Source of the DNA: Omnitrophica WOR_2 bacterium GWF2_43_52
GTDB taxonomy: Bacteria; Omnitrophota; Gorgyraeia; Gygaellales; UBA12090
Length of the DNA: 64,000 nt
Direction of reading: 5' to 3'
Assembly (NCBI GenBank): GCA_001805445.1
Contig: MHGF01000025.1
Span: 338 to 64,337 of the forward strand
Part shown: one piece after another, positions 23,030-63,321 of the stretch
Position numbering within the stretch: the stretch's first letter is position 1
Layout: each line of letters opens with the position of its first letter
Made by a program: the position numbers and the translations under genes
The notes under the pieces: model-generated
The model's database searches: none
What the model saw: only the letters and a program-made list of their open reading frames with translations
What the model was told of the DNA's origin: nothing

Positions 23030-23124
23030 CCCGGATTTTAAAAGGCGCTCTTAAACAATCTATGTTTCTTCCATTCGTATCATATCCCTGGCGATAAAAC
23101 GCAGGAATATTTAAGAGGGAGCCT

Positions 23125-24351
23125 ATGTCCCCCAATGGGCACCTTTTTATGGCTTACCTTACACATCCGTCCATAGTAGCGAGCCTTGCCTTTGTTTCTT
23201 TCCTTATAGCCGTATCGTTCATACAGAAAAAGAATAAAAAAGAGTATTCGCTAAAAGCAGAGCTTGAAGACCTGCAAGGGCGGATAAATATCGCCAGCCA
23301 ACAGCTCGAGGTTGAAGAGTCGCGAAGCCGAGCCCTCCGTTTTAAACTGAGGCGTTATGACGCCTTATCTCTTTTTACCGAGAAACTTAATCAGAATTTA
23401 TCCTTGGACGATACTCTTGCTATGTTGCTAGGCCAAACCCTCATCCTTCTTGGCCATGAAAAGACTATCTGCATGGTGTATTCTGTAGATAGCTCCTCAG
23501 GAGAGGTGGTATTGGAGGCAGCCAAAAACAATACGACAGAGTATTCGTTTGTTAAGGGAAAAGACAGCGATATGTTTAACCAGTGGGTAGTAAAACATAT
23601 GCAACCGTTATTAGTTGAAGATACGGTAAATGATTTTCGTTTTGACATAAAAAAACTAAAAACAGCGGCTGCCTTTCCCATAGGTTCACTTATCGCCTGC
23701 TGTCTTGTAAGCCAAAATAGTCCTCGGGGCATCGTGCGTTTAGATTCTCCCTATGCTAAATCATTTACTCTTGAGGATCTGAGGGTCTTAAACACTATCG
23801 CGGATATCGCAAGCGTAGCCATAGATAACGCGCGGTATTACCAGCATTTAAAGGAATTGGTGGTTAAGGATTCACTCACCGCGCTCTATACCCGCGCTTT
23901 TATTCTCGAGAAGCTTAAGGAGGAATTACAGCGTGTCAATAGCGCCACAGGCGGTTTAGCAGTTATGATGATAGATATAGATTACTTCAAGCAGTATAAC
24001 GATCTCTACGGCCATGTGGCCGGAGACTCTGTGCTAAAGAATTTAAGCGCGTGGTTGGGCGGATATATAAAGCCGAAGAACGCTCATCTGGGCCGTTATG
24101 GCGGCGAAGAATTTTTGATCATTGTCCCGTCTTGCACCAAACAGGAAGGGTTTAGTTTGGCTGAGACTATCCGTAGTTTTGTCCAGGAGAAAAAGATGAT
24201 GGTGCGGCGCAAAGCGACTGCCATTACTGTTTCAATAGGTGTTGCTCACTGTCCCCAGGATGCCGCGTCACTTTTGGAGTTGCTCCATAAGGCGGATACG
24301 GCATTGTATGAGGCAAAAAAATTGGGTAGGAATAGAGTATGCTTATTCTAG
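23125..24351 (+). CDS. Membrane-anchored coiled-coil/GAF-like sensor diguanylate cyclase (GGDEF)
   Basis: An N-terminal transmembrane segment and an intact 'RYGGEEF' active site. Confidence 0.8.
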   Translation: MSPNGHLFMAYLTHPSIVASLAFVSFLIAVSFIQKKNKKEYSLKAELEDLQGRINIASQQLEVEESRSRALRFKLRRYDALSLFTEKLNQNLSLDDTLAMLLGQTLILLGHEKTICMVYSVDSSSGEVVLEAAKNNTTEYSFVKGKDSDMFNQWVVKHMQPLLVEDTVNDFRFDIKKLKTAAAFPIGSLIACCLVSQNSPRGIVRLDSPYAKSFTLEDLRVLNTIADIASVAIDNARYYQHLKELVVKDSLTALYTRAFILEKLKEELQRVNSATGGLAVMMIDIDYFKQYNDLYGHVAGDSVLKNLSAWLGGYIKPKNAHLGRYGGEEFLIIVPSCTKQEGFSLAETIRSFVQEKKMMVRRKATAITVSIGVAHCPQDAASLLELLHKADTALYEAKKLGRNRVCLF

Positions 24352-25328
24352 GGGTTTTCTTTGGAATCCTTATCGCTTCCATGGTGATGTGGTGGATTTG
24401 GAACACAGGGAAGCGAAGCGTGCAGGCTTTGTCTATCGCTTCTTTGGCCAAGCGTGATTTGCTCGAAGTTATCGGGACTAGGCTGCAATATGCCCAGGAG
24501 TCAAATGCTAAAATAGCAGCTTCTGTAGAAATGGAGTCGGCCCTCTATGAGGTTACCAAGGAGCTTTCGAAGCCTCTTGAGGAAGAAGATATACTGAATA
24601 CGTTTCGAGAGAAGATAACCGCGCTTTTTAATCTCAGTGAGGCAGAATTTGTTGAATCTCCTGACGCAAGCGGCAAAAGTGTGTTCAGGATTTCGGCCAA
24701 TCAAAAGACATATTATTTTGCTGTTAGGGATTCCGTGAGCGTAAATAGGGTTAAGATGATGGTAATGGTAAACCAGCTTGAGCTTTTCTTAAAGCGCGCG
24801 GAGCTATATAGGGAAATACAGGAACTTTCAATTACCGATAGCCTGACCGGTGTCTACGTGCGGCGGTATTTTATGGAGAGATTTAAAGAGGAACAGGTGC
24901 GAGCAAAGCAGAATAACCTGGCGTTATCATTTTTGATTATCGACGTAGATAACTTTAAAACCTACAATGACACCTATGGACATATCACAGGAGATTTTAT
25001 CTTAAGGGAAATTGGGCGCATTCTTAGCGGCTCTTTACGCCAGATTGATATGTGCGCGCGCTATGGCGGAGAAGAATTTTGTATCATGTTACCTGAGACT
25101 ATTAAAGAAAAGGCCTACTTGGTAGCAGAACGCATCCGTTTAAATATGGAAAAGGCCAGAATAAGTGCTTTCCATGAGCGTTTCAACTGTACCATCAGTA
25201 TAGGAGTATCATCATATCCTGAAGACGCGGAACAGATCAGCCGGTTAATTGATAAGGCGGATAAGGCCCTTTATATCGCGAAGGCCAAAGGCAGGAATAG
25301 AGTCTGCGCGTTCGGCATTAAATGTTAG
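24339..25328 (+). CDS. Membrane-anchored diguanylate cyclase (GGDEF)
   Basis: 'RYGGEEF' motif. It overlaps the upstream DGC gene by 13 nt. Confidence 0.8.
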   Translation: MLILGVFFGILIASMVMWWIWNTGKRSVQALSIASLAKRDLLEVIGTRLQYAQESNAKIAASVEMESALYEVTKELSKPLEEEDILNTFREKITALFNLSEAEFVESPDASGKSVFRISANQKTYYFAVRDSVSVNRVKMMVMVNQLELFLKRAELYREIQELSITDSLTGVYVRRYFMERFKEEQVRAKQNNLALSFLIIDVDNFKTYNDTYGHITGDFILREIGRILSGSLRQIDMCARYGGEEFCIMLPETIKEKAYLVAERIRLNMEKARISAFHERFNCTISIGVSSYPEDAEQISRLIDKADKALYIAKAKGRNRVCAFGIKC

Positions 25329-38572: not shown

Positions 38573-39772
38573 CTATCCGCAGATACAATTTTTTCCTTGG
38601 TTTTTTGCTTCATAGAGTGCTTTATCAGCATGCCCTAAGAGCGCGTCCTTGGTTTGGGCGTCTTCAGAGAAGGCGGCAAGGCCGATGCTGATGGTGAGTT
38701 TCTTCGCGGAATGGTTTTGAGGCTGCTGGAAATCGTATTGTTCTATGGCCGCGCGTATTCTTTCCGCGATAAAACGCGCTTCCTGTTTGTTGGTGTGTTG
38801 TAACAGTATGGCGAATTCCTCGCCGCCATATCGGTAAATTGAATCTTGTTTTCTGGCGGAAAGAATAAGCAGGCGGGCGATCTGTTTTAGTATCTGATCC
38901 CCTTTTTGATGGCCGAAGGTATCGTTGTAGCTTTTGAAATTATCCAAATCCGCCATAATAATGCTTAAGGGCTGTTTATTCTTCTGTGCCGCGGTAATTT
39001 CTTCCTGAAGGCAATATTGAAAGTATCCGTGATTCCAAAGCCCTGTGAGGCTGTCGGTATGGGTTTTAATGAGAGTTTGTTCGTAGAGCTGGGAGTTTTC
39101 TATCGCTAACCCCGCTTGGTTAGCAAACATGGTAAGGATGCGAATACCGTCATTGGTGATCGGTTTATGGGTATACGGGTTATCGGCAAAGAGGACTCCG
39201 ATGATTTTGTTCTTTGCCTTAAGAGGGACGGTGATGAATTCTTCCGGTTTTAAAATATTAAGCAACGTGTCATCTTTATTCGGGAAAGTGCTCTCCCTGT
39301 TAAAATGAAGAGGCATGCCGTCAAGGAGGGTCATCGCTAAGACGCCGCCTTCTTCTTCTTTTAAAGGCAGGCGCAGGCTTTTGACTATGCGGTTAAGCTG
39401 GCTGTTGGCAAGCTGCCCGGAGACCTGGTAGTTGTTTATAAGGTCTTGAAGGTCAATAGATTCTTTTTCCATGCAGGTCCAGATTTGGTTTGCTTCTTCA
39501 CCGCTATCCGGGCCAATCCCCATTTTTCCCTCCAGAACCCCCTCTTTTTCATTGACGAGAAAAAGCATGGCTCGGTTGAAGCCCAATCCGACATGCGCGG
39601 TTACCGCGGTAAGGATGATGTAGAGAATCTCATCAAGTTTAAGCGTGGTATGCATGGCATTGGAAATCTCATAGAGGAGGGCGAGCTCTATACGTGTCTT
39701 TTGCAGCTCATTGGGGGTATTTTCAGGTTCACTCATAAGATAAAATGTAACATACGGCGCAAGAAAAGTCAA
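38573..39772 (-). CDS. GAF-domain diguanylate cyclase (GGDEF)
   Basis: 'RYGGEEF' motif and an N-terminal GAF domain. Confidence 0.8.
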   Translation of the reverse strand: MTFLAPYVTFYLMSEPENTPNELQKTRIELALLYEISNAMHTTLKLDEILYIILTAVTAHVGLGFNRAMLFLVNEKEGVLEGKMGIGPDSGEEANQIWTCMEKESIDLQDLINNYQVSGQLANSQLNRIVKSLRLPLKEEEGGVLAMTLLDGMPLHFNRESTFPNKDDTLLNILKPEEFITVPLKAKNKIIGVLFADNPYTHKPITNDGIRILTMFANQAGLAIENSQLYEQTLIKTHTDSLTGLWNHGYFQYCLQEEITAAQKNKQPLSIIMADLDNFKSYNDTFGHQKGDQILKQIARLLILSARKQDSIYRYGGEEFAILLQHTNKQEARFIAERIRAAIEQYDFQQPQNHSAKKLTISIGLAAFSEDAQTKDALLGHADKALYEAKNQGKNCICG

Positions 39773-39849
39773 GCTTGACTTAGAAGAGGCGATACGCTAT
39801 AATTATTTTCCGGTAAAAACTACAAAAAGCTCAAATTGAGGGGGTTACC

Positions 39850-59950: not shown

Positions 59951-60702
59951 GGCAGAATTTCCTCGTTGATAAAAACATCCAGGAAAAAATAATTGCCGCC
60001 TGTAACCTCAAAAAAACCGATACCGTAGTGGAAATAGGCCCGGGCAAAGGAGAAATAACCAAATTTCTACTTGCCACGGTAAAAAAGGTAGTCGCGGTTG
60101 AAATTGACCGCGCGCTCTGTGAGCGTTTGGTAGAACAATTCAGGCCGTATCCGAATTTCACCTTGCTTCATGCCGATATCCTGAAAACTTCATTGGCACA
60201 CTATAAAAACCTGAAAATTATTGCCAATATCCCTTACTATATCTCAACTCCCATAATTACCTATTTACTGCAGTATAGAAAACAGATAAAGGTTATTTAT
60301 TTAACCATGCAAAAGGAATTAGCCGGCCGTCTTGTCGCGACCGCCGGCACTAAGGCCTATGGCTCTTTTAGCTGTTTTACCCAGTTTTATACCCAGCCAA
60401 AGATACTTTTTCCCATTAAGAATACGTCATTCTGGCCAAAGCCAAAGGTGGATTCATCGTTTGTAGAGTTAAAAATTCTAAAAACACCGAGAGTCAAAGT
60501 GAAGGATGAAGAGCTTTTTTTTAGGATTATCCGCCGTGGCTTTAATCAACGGCGTAAAGTGCTTACCAATAGCCTGGCGACAATAGCTCCTATAAAGAAG
60601 CTGCAAGGCGCGCTTCGCGGCCGTAACCTATCCCAGACAGTAAGGGCTGAAGATTTGAGTTTAGAAGATTTTGCGCGCTTGGCGGGCTGTCTTAGTGGGT
60701 AA
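59923..60702 (+). CDS. rsmA: 16S rRNA (adenine1518/1519-N6)-dimethyltransferase
   Basis: 'LGQNFL' motif and a SAM-binding motif. The pdxA-ksgA linkage is conserved. Confidence 0.85.
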   Translation: MHPKPKKSLGQNFLVDKNIQEKIIAACNLKKTDTVVEIGPGKGEITKFLLATVKKVVAVEIDRALCERLVEQFRPYPNFTLLHADILKTSLAHYKNLKIIANIPYYISTPIITYLLQYRKQIKVIYLTMQKELAGRLVATAGTKAYGSFSCFTQFYTQPKILFPIKNTSFWPKPKVDSSFVELKILKTPRVKVKDEELFFRIIRRGFNQRRKVLTNSLATIAPIKKLQGALRGRNLSQTVRAEDLSLEDFARLAGCLSG

Positions 60703-60801
60703 TGCCCTACATATCAAGGCTCAGCCTTTAAATGTATATGACTTTCCAAGGCTGAGCCTTTACAATTTCCGAGGCTGTGTCAAAAAAATTATGCTCTCCT
60801 C

Positions 60802-60829
60802 TTGAAACTTAGCAAAGCTATGGTATACT
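60802..60829 (+). promoter_or_regulatory. Promoter (TTGAAA, 16-bp spacer, extended -10 TGGTATACT) driving the riboswitch leader
   Basis: TTGAAA at 60802-60807 and TGGTATACT at 60821-60829. Confidence 0.5.
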
Positions 60830-60851
60830 TTAACTAAAGATATTGTGACTA

Positions 60852-60930
60852 CTGATAAAGGTAAACCCAGAGTAATCTGGGGGCGCAAAGCAATGGGGTC
60901 CTGATAAAGGATTGCCCGGCTGCCAAAGGG
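60852..60930 (+). ncRNA. Candidate c-di-GMP-I (GEMM) riboswitch aptamer
   Basis: 'AAAGGUAAACC-CAGA-GUAA-UCUGG-GGGCGCAAAGC...GGGGUCCUGAUAAAGG...GCCCGGCUGCC' compared with the Vc2/GEMM core 'GGCAAACC-stem-GNRA-stem-GGACGCAAAGCC...'. Confidence 0.55.
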
Positions 60931-60997
60931 TAAGAACCGCCGATTACGCAGATTATGTGTAGCAAAGAAAAATGCGAATTACGCGGATTCTGAAATA

Positions 60998-61030
60998 AAC
61001 CTAAGGTATCAAGCGCTTTAGGTTTTTTTA
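60998..61030 (+). terminator. Intrinsic terminator and expression platform of the riboswitch (AACCUAA stem, 13-nt loop, UUAGGUU, then U7)
   Basis: aacctaa ggtatcaagcgct ttaggtt ttttttt. Confidence 0.7.
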
Positions 61031-61163
61031 TTGCCCCTGATTCTTTTGTGAGGAGGTGGTGTTCATAAGGCTAATGATGATAGTAAATTAGGAAGATTTC
61101 TCTTGACAATAGAATATCAGGTGTTAGAATAAGTTTGCCTTTGAAAGGCAGAAAGGGGGCAAT

Positions 61164-61646
61164 ATGTTTACAAAAAATAAGAAAGGTTTTACCTTAGTTG
61201 AAATTATGATTGTGGTGGCAATCATAGCGCTTTTGGCGGCAATATCAATTCCCGGGCTTTTACGTTCGCGTATGAATGCCAATGAGTCAAATGCTATCGG
61301 TAGTGTAAAGACATTAAGCACTGGTGCTGAGACGTTTAGGTCAGCTCAGGCTGCTCCACTGTATCCTGCTGATATAGCAGTTGACCTTGTTGGTGCTGTT
61401 CCTCCGTATGTCACGGGTTTTGTTGGCGCAGCAGATCCTGTTACAAAAAGCGGCTATACCTTTAGTATAGGACGAAATACAGCGAATACCTATACTGTTA
61501 GGGCAAATCCAACAACTGTAGGAACAACAGGAAACCGTGCCTTTTGCGTTGATGAAACAGGCCTTATGTATGCAACAACGGCAGCGGCAGGCTTTGTAGA
61601 TACTGCAGCATGTATTGGACAGGGAGGTGCTACACAATTACAGTAG
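61164..61646 (+). CDS. Type IV (major) pilin
   Basis: N-terminal 'KKGFTLVEIMIVVAIIALLAAI', the class III signal with Glu5. Confidence 0.85.
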   Translation: MFTKNKKGFTLVEIMIVVAIIALLAAISIPGLLRSRMNANESNAIGSVKTLSTGAETFRSAQAAPLYPADIAVDLVGAVPPYVTGFVGAADPVTKSGYTFSIGRNTANTYTVRANPTTVGTTGNRAFCVDETGLMYATTAAAGFVDTAACIGQGGATQLQ

Positions 61647-61669
61647 AAATAAAAACTTTTTTGGAAAAA

Positions 61670-61706
61670 GACAAATGGCGATGGTATTTCCATCGCCATT
61701 TGTCTT
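61670..61706 (+). terminator. 15-bp stem hairpin after the pilin gene
   Basis: gacaaatggcgatgg tattt ccatcgccatttgtc. Confidence 0.5.
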
Positions 61707-61877
61707 CAGAAATGTTGCTTAAAAAATAGATGAAACATAAGAGATGAGACTGATTTTTGAATGGGGATTAACTATTGATCTATCTAACCTGTGGTTTATT
61801 AAAAAAATAATGAGATGATGCAGGAATGATGACTGCCTTAGATTAGAACTTTCCTAAGAGATTTTCCGCTCTTTAAA

Positions 61878-62315
61878 ATGAAGATAGCCAAAGGGTTCAC
61901 GCTCGTAGAAATAATGCTGGTGGTTGCTCTTATTGCCTTATTAGCAGGGCTTGCTGTTCCTCAAGTTTTGCGCTCTAGGCTTCTTGCACATGAAGCTGCG
62001 GCAATAGCGGGCATGAAGGCAATCCATAAGGGATGCCAGATGTATTACAGCGCTAATGATAATACGTATCCTCTCACCGGTTTGACGGATTTAGCTTCTG
62101 CTAGTCCGGCATATATAGATTCTGTATTAGGTTCAGGAACAAAGCAGGGCTATCAGTTTACGTTTACCTTTGTTGATGCTGACCATTATTTTGTGAACGC
62201 GGATCCGGTTACCCCCGGAGTAAGCGGTAATAGATATTTTTATATAGATCAGGAGGGCGCGATACATAGTTCAACAACCGGCCAGGCAACGGCAGCGGAC
62301 CCTCTCGTGCAATGA
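61878..62315 (+). CDS. Type IV pilin
   Basis: 'KGFTLVEIMLVVALIALLAG' prepilin N-terminus. Confidence 0.8.
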   Translation: MKIAKGFTLVEIMLVVALIALLAGLAVPQVLRSRLLAHEAAAIAGMKAIHKGCQMYYSANDNTYPLTGLTDLASASPAYIDSVLGSGTKQGYQFTFTFVDADHYFVNADPVTPGVSGNRYFYIDQEGAIHSSTTGQATAADPLVQ

Positions 62316-62338: not shown

Positions 62339-62764
62339 GTGGCAGGCGCTATGGCAAGAAAACTTAATAAAGGTTTCACCCTTCCGGAATTACTGCTGGC
62401 TTTTTCGGTTATGGCTCTTGTCTTGGCAGGGGCATTGAGCCTTTTCATCAGCTGTATCTTTCTTAATGAAACTAACCGGAATCTGAGCGTGGCAACCGGG
62501 CATGCCCAGCTCGTTTTAGAGGAGATAAAAAATACTAATTTCGTAAGTATGCAGTCGGGGGCTATAAATCCAGAGACAAATTGGGATTGGGATAACGCCG
62601 CGATAAGCGCGAAAGGCTTGATTGTTCTTAATACTGAGTCAATCAGCACGCAGGCAGTATGGACAGGTACCGACCGGCTTAACGTCAATGTTACGGTGAG
62701 TTGGAAAGACCGCGGGCTAAGGGATAGGTCAACATCCTTAGAAACACTCATCACTGAGCCATGA
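62339..62764 (+). CDS. Minor pilin or pseudopilin (PilV/GspI-like)
   Basis: 'KGFTLPELLLAFSVMALVLAG' N-terminus. Confidence 0.65.
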   Translation: MAGAMARKLNKGFTLPELLLAFSVMALVLAGALSLFISCIFLNETNRNLSVATGHAQLVLEEIKNTNFVSMQSGAINPETNWDWDNAAISAKGLIVLNTESISTQAVWTGTDRLNVNVTVSWKDRGLRDRSTSLETLITEP

Positions 62765-63321
62765 AAAACCCATTAAGCCATATATTTTTTTTAAAAGGCA
62801 AGAGGATACCAAAGCCTTCAGGACTTACCTTGGTTGAAATTTTGATTGCGACTGCCCTGTTCCTCCTGCTGATCACAGGTGTTTTCGCGGTGCTTAATGT
62901 CGCGGACATGAGCTGGCATTCTGATATGGGGCTGGTAGACTTACAGCAGGAGGCCCGGCACATTATGGATGGTATGACCCGGGAAATCCGGCAGGCTGAC
63001 CCGTCTAGAGACGTTACCATTGGCGCCGGCGGCAATAGCCTCCAGTTTTATATTGCTAGTTATACTGACCCTATAAGCTATACTTTGATTAACGGCCAGC
63101 TTATTCGCCAGCATCCAAATGGCGTAAGTAAGGTATTGGGAAATGATGTCAGCAGTTTAGGCTTTTGCTGGCTGCAATCTAACGGTGCCTGTCAGGCTGC
63201 CAGAAATAATAGCTATACCTTGCAGGTGAGTTTACAGGCAACTAAGACCGTCAGGCAGAGGGTAGTGGTTTTTCCTTCTGCCGGGCCTTTGATAGAGGAG
63301 GTTAAGCTAAGAAATGAATAA
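62761..63321 (+). CDS. Minor pilin (PilW/GspJ-like)
   Basis: 'SGLTLVEILIATALFLLLITGVF' N-terminus. Confidence 0.6.
   Translation: MKNPLSHIFFLKGKRIPKPSGLTLVEILIATALFLLLITGVFAVLNVADMSWHSDMGLVDLQQEARHIMDGMTREIRQADPSRDVTIGAGGNSLQFYIASYTDPISYTLINGQLIRQHPNGVSKVLGNDVSSLGFCWLQSNGACQAARNNSYTLQVSLQATKTVRQRVVVFPSAGPLIEEVKLRNE

Follow-up and report, generated by a model that had tools for sequence, protein, structure and literature searches.

Does a riboswitch that lies ahead of a type IV pilin gene decide whether that gene is expressed? The question is raised by a 64,000-nt stretch of DNA from Omnitrophica WOR_2 bacterium GWF2_43_52 (contig MHGF01000025.1; hereafter, the window), in which an original prediction had placed a riboswitch for c-di-GMP (bis-(3'-5')-cyclic dimeric guanosine monophosphate), with a promoter and an intrinsic terminator of its own, upstream of the major pilin gene. 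By sequence, the RNA encoded at 60850-60927 is a canonical c-di-GMP-I riboswitch aptamer that would bind c-di-GMP. On the same basis, the riboswitch would only tune, and not gate, pilin expression, since a second predicted promoter (P2) that is independent of the switch lies between it and the gene. The features of the locus are as follows.

60802-60829, forward strand: promoter P1, a sigma-70-type promoter-like site with an extended -10 (TTGAAA-16-TG.TATACT; 10 of 12 consensus positions, with TG)
60850-60927, forward strand: c-di-GMP-I (GEMM-I) aptamer, a full-length RF01051 match
60933-60991, forward strand: imperfect spacer hairpin between aptamer and terminator, from minimum-free-energy and centroid folds
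60997-61029, forward strand: intrinsic terminator from a consensus scan, with an 11-bp stem (60997-61025) containing three G-C pairs, a 7-nt loop and a U7 run (61023-61029)
61050-61061, forward strand: GAGGAGGTGGTG, which by comparison with relatives is a probable relic of the P2 spacer typical of the family, its flanking hexamers decayed
61103-61130, forward strand: promoter P2, a near-consensus promoter-like site (TTGACA-16-TG.TAGAAT; 11 of 12, with TG)
61136-61159, forward strand: short P2 leader, consisting of the hairpin TGCCTT-TGA-AAGGCA (61136-61150) and the Shine-Dalgarno sequence AAAGGGGG (61152-61159)
61164-61646, forward strand: type IV pilin of 160 aa with a prepilin N-methylation motif, first gene of the pilus operon

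The c-di-GMP-I aptamer

When all 64 kb of the window were compared with Rfam 15 by cmscan, a single match reached gathering level, RF01051 (c-di-GMP-I) at 60850-60927 on the forward strand, which covered model positions 1-87 of 87 with 55.3 bits (gathering score, 35) and an E-value of 4.4e-8; neither c-di-GMP-II nor any other Rfam family reached that level. The GEMM-I call, for which such a scan had been proposed as the check, is thereby borne out, and the sequence elements quoted in its favor, including GGTAAACC (60860-67, forward strand), the aptamer core GGCGCAAAGC, GGGGTCCTGATAAAGG and GCCCGGCTGCC, were all found where they had been placed. Aligned to the model, the aptamer has a P1a hairpin of six pairs, CCCAGA-GUAA-UCUGGG (60866-71/60876-81, forward strand), with a GUAA loop of the GNRA type, and next to it the pairs G60861-C60886 and U60862-G60885, the latter a wobble that replaces C-G (the Vc2 counterparts are G21-C46 and C22-G45). 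The ligand-contact positions are canonical, with G20 at 60860, A47 at 60887 and C92 at 60923; A47 presumably intercalates with the ligand, as in the Vc2 structures.

In GEMM-I RNAs, G20 reads one guanine of the ligand (G-alpha) and C92 pairs with the other (G-beta), and the GEMM-Ib RNAs that sense cyclic GMP-AMP (cGAMP) have A at position 20 (G20A; PMC6140456). Since the window retains G at 60860, we assign the aptamer to the c-di-GMP type, and cGAMP specificity was ruled out. The other conceivable identity is the Rfam "GGC" variant (RF03167, c-di-GMP-I-GGC), on which three of the diverged loci described below (L041, L035 and L012) score slightly higher than on RF01051. However, the RF03167 consensus is ACGCGAA, with A47 changed to G, while the window (GCGCAAA) and all relatives carry (A/G)CGCAAA or ACACAAA. 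The variant was therefore rejected for the relatives as well, A47 being retained and the higher scores stemming from helix P1 in that model. In the window, RF03167 gave no match at its gathering threshold (59), and the GGC variant is not described in the paper on 224 candidate RNAs. We thus consider it extremely improbable that the element is a GEMM-Ib RNA or a GGC variant instead of a c-di-GMP sensor.

Helix P1, on whose ability to close the three-way junction the original prediction had staked its call, is marginal: G60854-C60924 and U60853-A60925 form two Watson-Crick pairs, followed by a CA/AA mismatch and then by U.G and C-G in an interrupted extension. Its first five positions are identical in the window-like locus L052, and P1 has 4-8 contiguous pairs in L060, L041, L035 and L068. 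Besides this marginal P1, the element differs from the RF01051 consensus in its P1b, the helix that in this family bears the tetraloop receptor, which is present but ~9 nt shorter (~9 model positions deleted, with four non-canonical pairs flagged, in distal P1b), and in its host, an uncultured Omnitrophota lineage. It shares with Vc2 and the RF01051 family the full-length match, P1a with its GNRA loop, G20, A47 and C92, and a core of the ACGCAAAGC type, as well as the position ahead of a motility or adhesion gene in a genome with GGDEF cyclases. The window element adds a further case to the c-di-GMP-I family and is nothing outside known kinds. We also observed that the 10-mer CTGATAAAGG occurs twice in the aptamer, at 60852-60861 (P1 5' strand and G20 junction) and at 60901-60910 (P1b apical loop), which may be the trace of a duplication or an alternative register.

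Two predicted promoters and a terminator ahead of the pilin gene

Both flanking elements of the original prediction were recovered, and both recur in relatives: the promoter ahead of the aptamer, from which transcription is predicted to start near 60836, and the terminator 3' of it, whose hairpin has a free energy of about -13 kcal/mol and which ends 134 nt before the ATG at 61164 (130 bp had been given). Between aptamer and terminator, the spacer hairpin is specific to the window locus, being missing from the window-like leaders L052 and L061. That the leader or the spacer hairpin derives from a repeat or a mobile element was considered and rejected, only chance 11-mers being found elsewhere in the window. 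Upstream of P1 and directly 3' of the rsmA/ksgA stop codon, a perfect 13-bp inverted repeat, AAGGCTCAGCCTT ... AAGGCTGAGCCTT (60716-60728/60748-60760, with a 19-nt loop and a weak T-tract), probably marks the end of the upstream operon and sets it apart from P1.

P2, which is absent from the original prediction, is the best promoter match in 60400-61900 and falls downstream of the terminator, 73 nt past its U-run and 61 nt from the ATG of the pilin gene. Transcription from it would start near 61137 and give a riboswitch-independent pilin transcript with a leader of ~27 nt, whose hairpin was also scored as a minus-strand terminator-like match (61150-61136). With P2 between terminator and gene, the leader that had been proposed (about 190 nt; ~195 nt as predicted here) is not the only, and perhaps not the main, 5' untranslated region (UTR) of the pilin.

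More than 20 public contigs carry the identical pilin, three Omnitrophota assemblies of metagenome-assembled genomes among them, but in the six that were aligned the intergenic regions match the window at 100% identity and are thus of no use for comparison; on these contigs, the operon continues with three pilin-like genes, then pilM, pilO and a secretin gene. A scan of genome contigs with the pilin yielded just two distant loci, which were irrelevant, and pilin homologues at 50-66% identity all belong to Candidatus Omnitrophica. The comparative set consists of 80 metagenome loci retrieved with an alignment of these homologues. In 9 of these 80 (L010, L035, L041, L056, L060, L061, L062, L065 and L068), an aptamer of the c-di-GMP-I clan lies on the same strand, 200-400 nt before a pilin of 34-58% identity; the count is ten with the window and eleven with L052, whose window-like aptamer (L052:1030-1157) is sub-threshold (32 bits, E 7e-4). 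The L052 aptamer has a two-hairpin insertion of ~40 nt between GGGGAC and GCAAAGCC, and its flanks, CUACUGAUAAAGG on the 5' side and GCCAAAG on the 3' side, are as in the window. Four of the closest pilin homologues (L089-L092, 58-66% identity) are without a GEMM-I aptamer and thus added no leader nearer to that of the window. In L011 the aptamer is located after a pilin gene, and in L012 (727-808, reverse strand) it lies on the strand opposite to the pilin and faces a secreted, repeat-rich protein of 157 aa (L012:112-585, reverse strand), so the riboswitch is not confined to pilin genes in this lineage.

The order of parts is the same across these leaders: a TGnTATACT promoter, the aptamer, a hairpin followed by T5-7, a TTGACA...TAnAAT promoter, an untranslated region and the pilin. 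The TGnTATACT -10 stands 20-35 nt ahead of the sensor despite differing upstream genes, and the hairpin with its T-run occurs at the equivalent position in nine of ten GEMM-I leaders, being missing solely in L068. The order P1-sensor-terminator-P2-pilin extends over a set of 22 diverged Omnitrophota pilin loci, a count that includes eleven loci with a non-GEMM-I sensor and excludes L047. A promoter-like site matching at least 10 of 12 consensus positions lies within 140 nt past the terminator in 20 of the 22 modules (expected, 0.043 per window searched), and pilin genes without a GEMM-I match have a similar P2-type promoter ~160-200 nt upstream. Since P2 recurs both in the modules and ahead of pilin genes without GEMM-I, we take it to be the pilin's own promoter, with the riboswitch unit added upstream.

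In relatives, the P2 spacer contains the perfect Shine-Dalgarno-like sequence AAGGAGGTG, in the arrangement TTGACA-N6-8-AAGGAGGTG-N-TATAAA (L010, L024, L035, L037, L039, L041, L045, L052, L053, L056 and L091); within a P2 spacer it would be transcribed only in read-through RNA from the upstream module, and in L089 and L090 it lies within the transcribed leader. A promoter element, an operator and an RNA-level site are candidates for its role. The window is atypical in two respects: just 61 nt separate its P2 from the ATG, and a probable remnant of a P2 of the family type precedes it. The window's P2 context, AAGATTTCTCTTGACAA, is shared with L061, where the leader hairpin and GCAGAAAGGRGG are also kept. 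L061 itself carries a relic of the 5' end of a window-type aptamer (GCTACTGATAAAGGTTCACTCAG, L061:953-1017) upstream of its intact aptamer, and its pilin reading frame starts with a tandem peptide repeat (RSGSTTLTT x3), which suggests local rearrangement.

The pilin and cyclase context of the window was as the original prediction had described it. The pilin scores above the cut-offs of PF07963 and TIGR02532, and it is by position that we call it the "major" pilin; the three GGDEF proteins have full-length Pfam/NCBIfam GGDEF matches and GGEEF motifs.

61878-62315, forward strand: prepilin-type gene
62339-62764, forward strand: prepilin-type gene
62761-63321, forward strand: prepilin-type gene
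23098-25328, forward strand: two adjacent diguanylate cyclase genes (23098-24351 and 24336-25328), a GAF-GGDEF and a GGDEF gene, each with GGEEF
38573-39796, reverse strand: third diguanylate cyclase gene, GAF-GGDEF with GGEEF

The idea that c-di-GMP controls the pilus is supported as far as riboswitch and cyclase context go; with P2 as a bypass, this control would amount to tuning and not to gating.

Sign of the switch

The locus would work as follows. An RNA started from P1 near 60836 would present the aptamer, and c-di-GMP would bind to it; while the ligand holds the aptamer, the hairpin and U7 run would form, and P1 transcripts would stop as an RNA of ~195 nt. Without ligand, segments of the aptamer and leader would pair with the terminator 5' strand, and some polymerases would cross P2 into the pilus operon. 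Whatever the state of the riboswitch, P2 would drive the pilin with its 27-nt leader. We hold with moderate confidence that c-di-GMP in this way lowers the P1-derived share of pilus-operon transcription (OFF), rather than turning the pilin on or off. For the window locus, we infer the OFF sign from the architecture and from homology.

Aptamer and terminator do not overlap, the latter being a hairpin of its own. We folded nascent transcripts, i.e., RNAs ending before the terminator 3' strand, and found the terminator 5' strand paired with aptamer or leader nucleotides (P 0.35-0.80), while pairing with the spacer was almost nil. When the aptamer was sequestered, the terminator stem formed with P 0.81-0.99 in nine of nine loci, the value for the window being 0.81. 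In L010, L035 and L065, the antiterminator consists of the P1a loop, the P1a 3' strand and the ACGCAAA core, set against the terminator 5' strand. The duplex between aptamer and terminator was better than in shuffled sequences for L010, L035 and L062 (n ≤ 17/500), and more weakly so for L065 (37/500) and L060 (52/500). In L061, the partner of the terminator 5' strand, at P~0.9, is the 3' tail GCCAAAGGGUGAG, which comprises C92 together with the 3' strand of P1, and the tail GCCAAAGGGU is common to L061 and the window. A like layout is seen in the non-GEMM-I modules, in which the partner strand changes along with the terminator sequence. In the relatives this is an OFF layout, since bound ligand would lock the aptamer and free the terminator.

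The same folds bear on the opposite sign, an ON switch like that of Clostridioides difficile pilA1, in which c-di-GMP would block the terminator and raise pilus expression. Type IV pili of C. difficile are promoted by c-di-GMP via a riboswitch (PMC6366702), and the extra spacer hairpin of the window could in principle act as an anti-antiterminator. However, the terminator is a self-contained hairpin 70 nt past the aptamer, with not one nucleotide in common; it is still free to form once the aptamer is locked, its 5' strand pairs with the spacer at only P 0.02, relatives without the spacer hairpin have the plain OFF layout, and the C. difficile pilA1 element is of class II, not class I. We therefore regard an ON switch as very improbable.

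Several observations at the window locus weigh against the OFF reading, or limit its reach. P1, P2 and the terminator are consensus matches only; the start sites are predictions, as is the strength of P1 relative to P2. The tail pairing seen in L061 has only P~0.1 in the window, where an AA/AA mismatch interrupts it; other pairings there, in which AGGU at 60859-62 (including G20) and the leader at 60839-53 face 60999-61011, reach P 0.35-0.49. The window antiterminator duplex is no better than in shuffled sequences (144/500; in a second test, z -0.09, 426/1000), and with no constraint on folding the terminator is present in 77% of the ensemble, as it is in the global minimum-free-energy structure, so termination in the window could be largely constitutive. 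To judge from the sequence, the marginal P1 and truncated P1b could reduce ligand affinity, and the riboswitch's share of pilin output may be small given a near-consensus P2.

If the terminator is near-constitutive, P1 might simply give a c-di-GMP-binding small RNA of ~195 nt, with ligand-dependent stability or activity in trans, while the pilin mRNA comes from P2. This would fit a terminator that forms either way (P 0.77 free, 0.81 locked) with an antiterminator not above chance, and it would fit the family-wide position of P2 right after the terminator, its -35 lying 1-7 nt past the T-run in most non-GEMM-I modules, which is the usual look of two units. It also has a precedent in Vibrio cholerae, where Vc2 transcripts are mostly small RNAs and downstream promoters supply most of the tfoY mRNA (bioRxiv 10.1101/617340). 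Yet the complementarity between sensor and terminator 5' strand is kept in relatives and tracks the terminator sequence, which would be difficult to account for if termination were not conditional; moreover, the module always sits beside a pilin gene, whatever lies upstream, which favors action in cis, and no target in trans was identified. We consider the small RNA unlikely as the explanation.

In 20 of 22 modules a conditional terminator stands between tandem promoters, and in many relatives P2 abuts the U-run, which also brings transcriptional interference to mind. At low c-di-GMP, read-through from P1 would occlude or dislodge polymerase at P2, or give a poorly translated mRNA with a long leader; termination induced by c-di-GMP would then shield P2, and the net effect of c-di-GMP on the pilin would be positive. 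By sequence alone this looks the same as the additive model, in which read-through adds to P2 output; however, it needs a P1 that is strong relative to P2, yet P2 is nearer consensus, and there is no direct evidence for it. We judge interference improbable.

Known systems offer partial parallels. The closest precedent for the promoter layout is V. cholerae Vc2/tfoY, a GEMM-I RNA whose aptamer is flanked by promoters on either side, of which the downstream ones give riboswitch-independent mRNA and the upstream ones mostly short riboswitch RNAs, with an OFF-type effect of c-di-GMP (Pursley et al.; bioRxiv 10.1101/617340). Unlike the window, with its hairpin and U7 run, Vc2 has no intrinsic-terminator platform and acts via RNA stability or translation; in the window, the downstream promoter lies beyond the terminator, an arrangement kept across many loci of the lineage. 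As cited in the same work (bioRxiv 10.1101/617340), class I c-di-GMP riboswitches of C. difficile are reportedly mainly OFF. Among these, Cd1 (flgB) shares with the window element its class, ligand-induced termination (OFF) and a motility-organelle operon (PMC6366702), but it serves flagella and not pili, no promoter has been described between its terminator and operon, and for the window the sign is a prediction. C. difficile Cdi-2-4 (pilA1) likewise lies directly before a major type IV pilin gene and is terminator based (PMC6366702), but its aptamer is of class II with an ON sign, and it is the sole promoter-proximal control of pilA1. Bacillus thuringiensis Bc1 has a class I aptamer, a long multi-hairpin platform and intrinsic terminator(s), and it illustrates how the ligand response of a class I element can be hidden by a strong terminator (PMC11218506); it differs in that its two terminators are separated by 28 bp and no promoter follows them, whereas in the window a single terminator is accompanied by a non-terminator hairpin and by P2.

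Modules with other sensors and a 5' UTR RNA

The unit of promoter, terminator and P2 also occurs in twelve loci without a GEMM-I match (L016, L024, L037, L039, L040, L043, L044, L045, L047, L053, L067 and L072), and in L091. Their shorter sensor has no Rfam match at E ≤ 5 (12 loci and L052, of which only L052 gave a match, its sub-threshold GEMM-I). The terminator is mostly CCUAUUCUUC...GGAGAATAGG-U6 and is nearly identical between loci (CCTATTCTTC...GGAGAATAGG-T6); in L039, L045, L047, L053 and L016, its stem encloses two extra hairpins. In all 12 loci tested (the set without L047), the best partner of the terminator 5' strand is an element 13-30 nt past the predicted start, which usually lies within a small 5' hairpin and copies the terminator 3' strand. 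Where the terminator sequence differs, in L091, L024 and L072, the partner changes with it, which gives the layout of a four-strand attenuator. From these sequences, the 5'-proximal element can act as an antiterminator. L044 shows a likeness to the 5' half of a GEMM-I aptamer.

These modules raise a broader reading, which we put forward tentatively and consider possible rather than probable. The riboswitch would be one swappable sensor head of a lineage-wide "conditional terminator" module upstream of the pilin promoter and outside the pilin's own transcription unit; in at least twelve other loci, the terminator CCUAUUCUUC...GGAGAAUAGG-U6 would be preceded by a short element without Rfam match, the 3' strand of which would serve as antiterminator. 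The module would act via read-through that is regulated, giving an additional mRNA isoform or interfering with the promoter, or as a signal-dependent small RNA, and the non-GEMM-I sensor would answer to another ligand or to a protein.

Between P2 and the pilin ATG, many Omnitrophota relatives carry a further structured RNA of ~140 nt in the 5' UTR. Three helices are nested within one another (GACU/AGUC, one of GCGC type, and CCUCUUA/UAAGAGG); AAGUUAUAAUU stands at the apex, and the Shine-Dalgarno sequence is covered by an invariant CCUU hairpin. With a covariance model built from a single sequence, 15 copies were found, the following and six more; the same search found no copy in the window.

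L091:1853-1995: 5' UTR RNA
L072:1356-1488: 5' UTR RNA
L053:276-403: 5' UTR RNA
L045:584-722: 5' UTR RNA
L037:651-772: 5' UTR RNA
L044:263-397: 5' UTR RNA
L024:1355-1493: 5' UTR RNA
L067:1371-1500: 5' UTR RNA
L039:1342-1498: 5' UTR RNA

Compensatory changes were present in 23 of 28 pairs, with 89.5% of cells paired as compared to 34-49% in slid controls, counts that are tilted toward the structure because the alignment was fitted to the model; the covariation score was reached by none of 500 shuffles. RNAalifold on a MAFFT alignment of the relatives' 5' UTRs recovered the Shine-Dalgarno hairpin only, and the helices needed the single-sequence covariance model. The RNA has no Rfam match at E ≤ 5.

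Taken by itself, the window element is a routine annotation, recovered automatically by Rfam, in a phylum without a cultured model. It suggests a direct link at the RNA level between c-di-GMP and type IV pili in Omnitrophota, with a sign that is probably opposite to that of C. difficile pilA1. As the conserved order of parts shows, a gene is not gated by a riboswitch simply because an aptamer lies upstream of it. The lineage also offers a natural series in which one expression platform is joined to a GEMM-I or to another sensor, which suits module-swap studies and searches for ligand- or protein-binding RNA.

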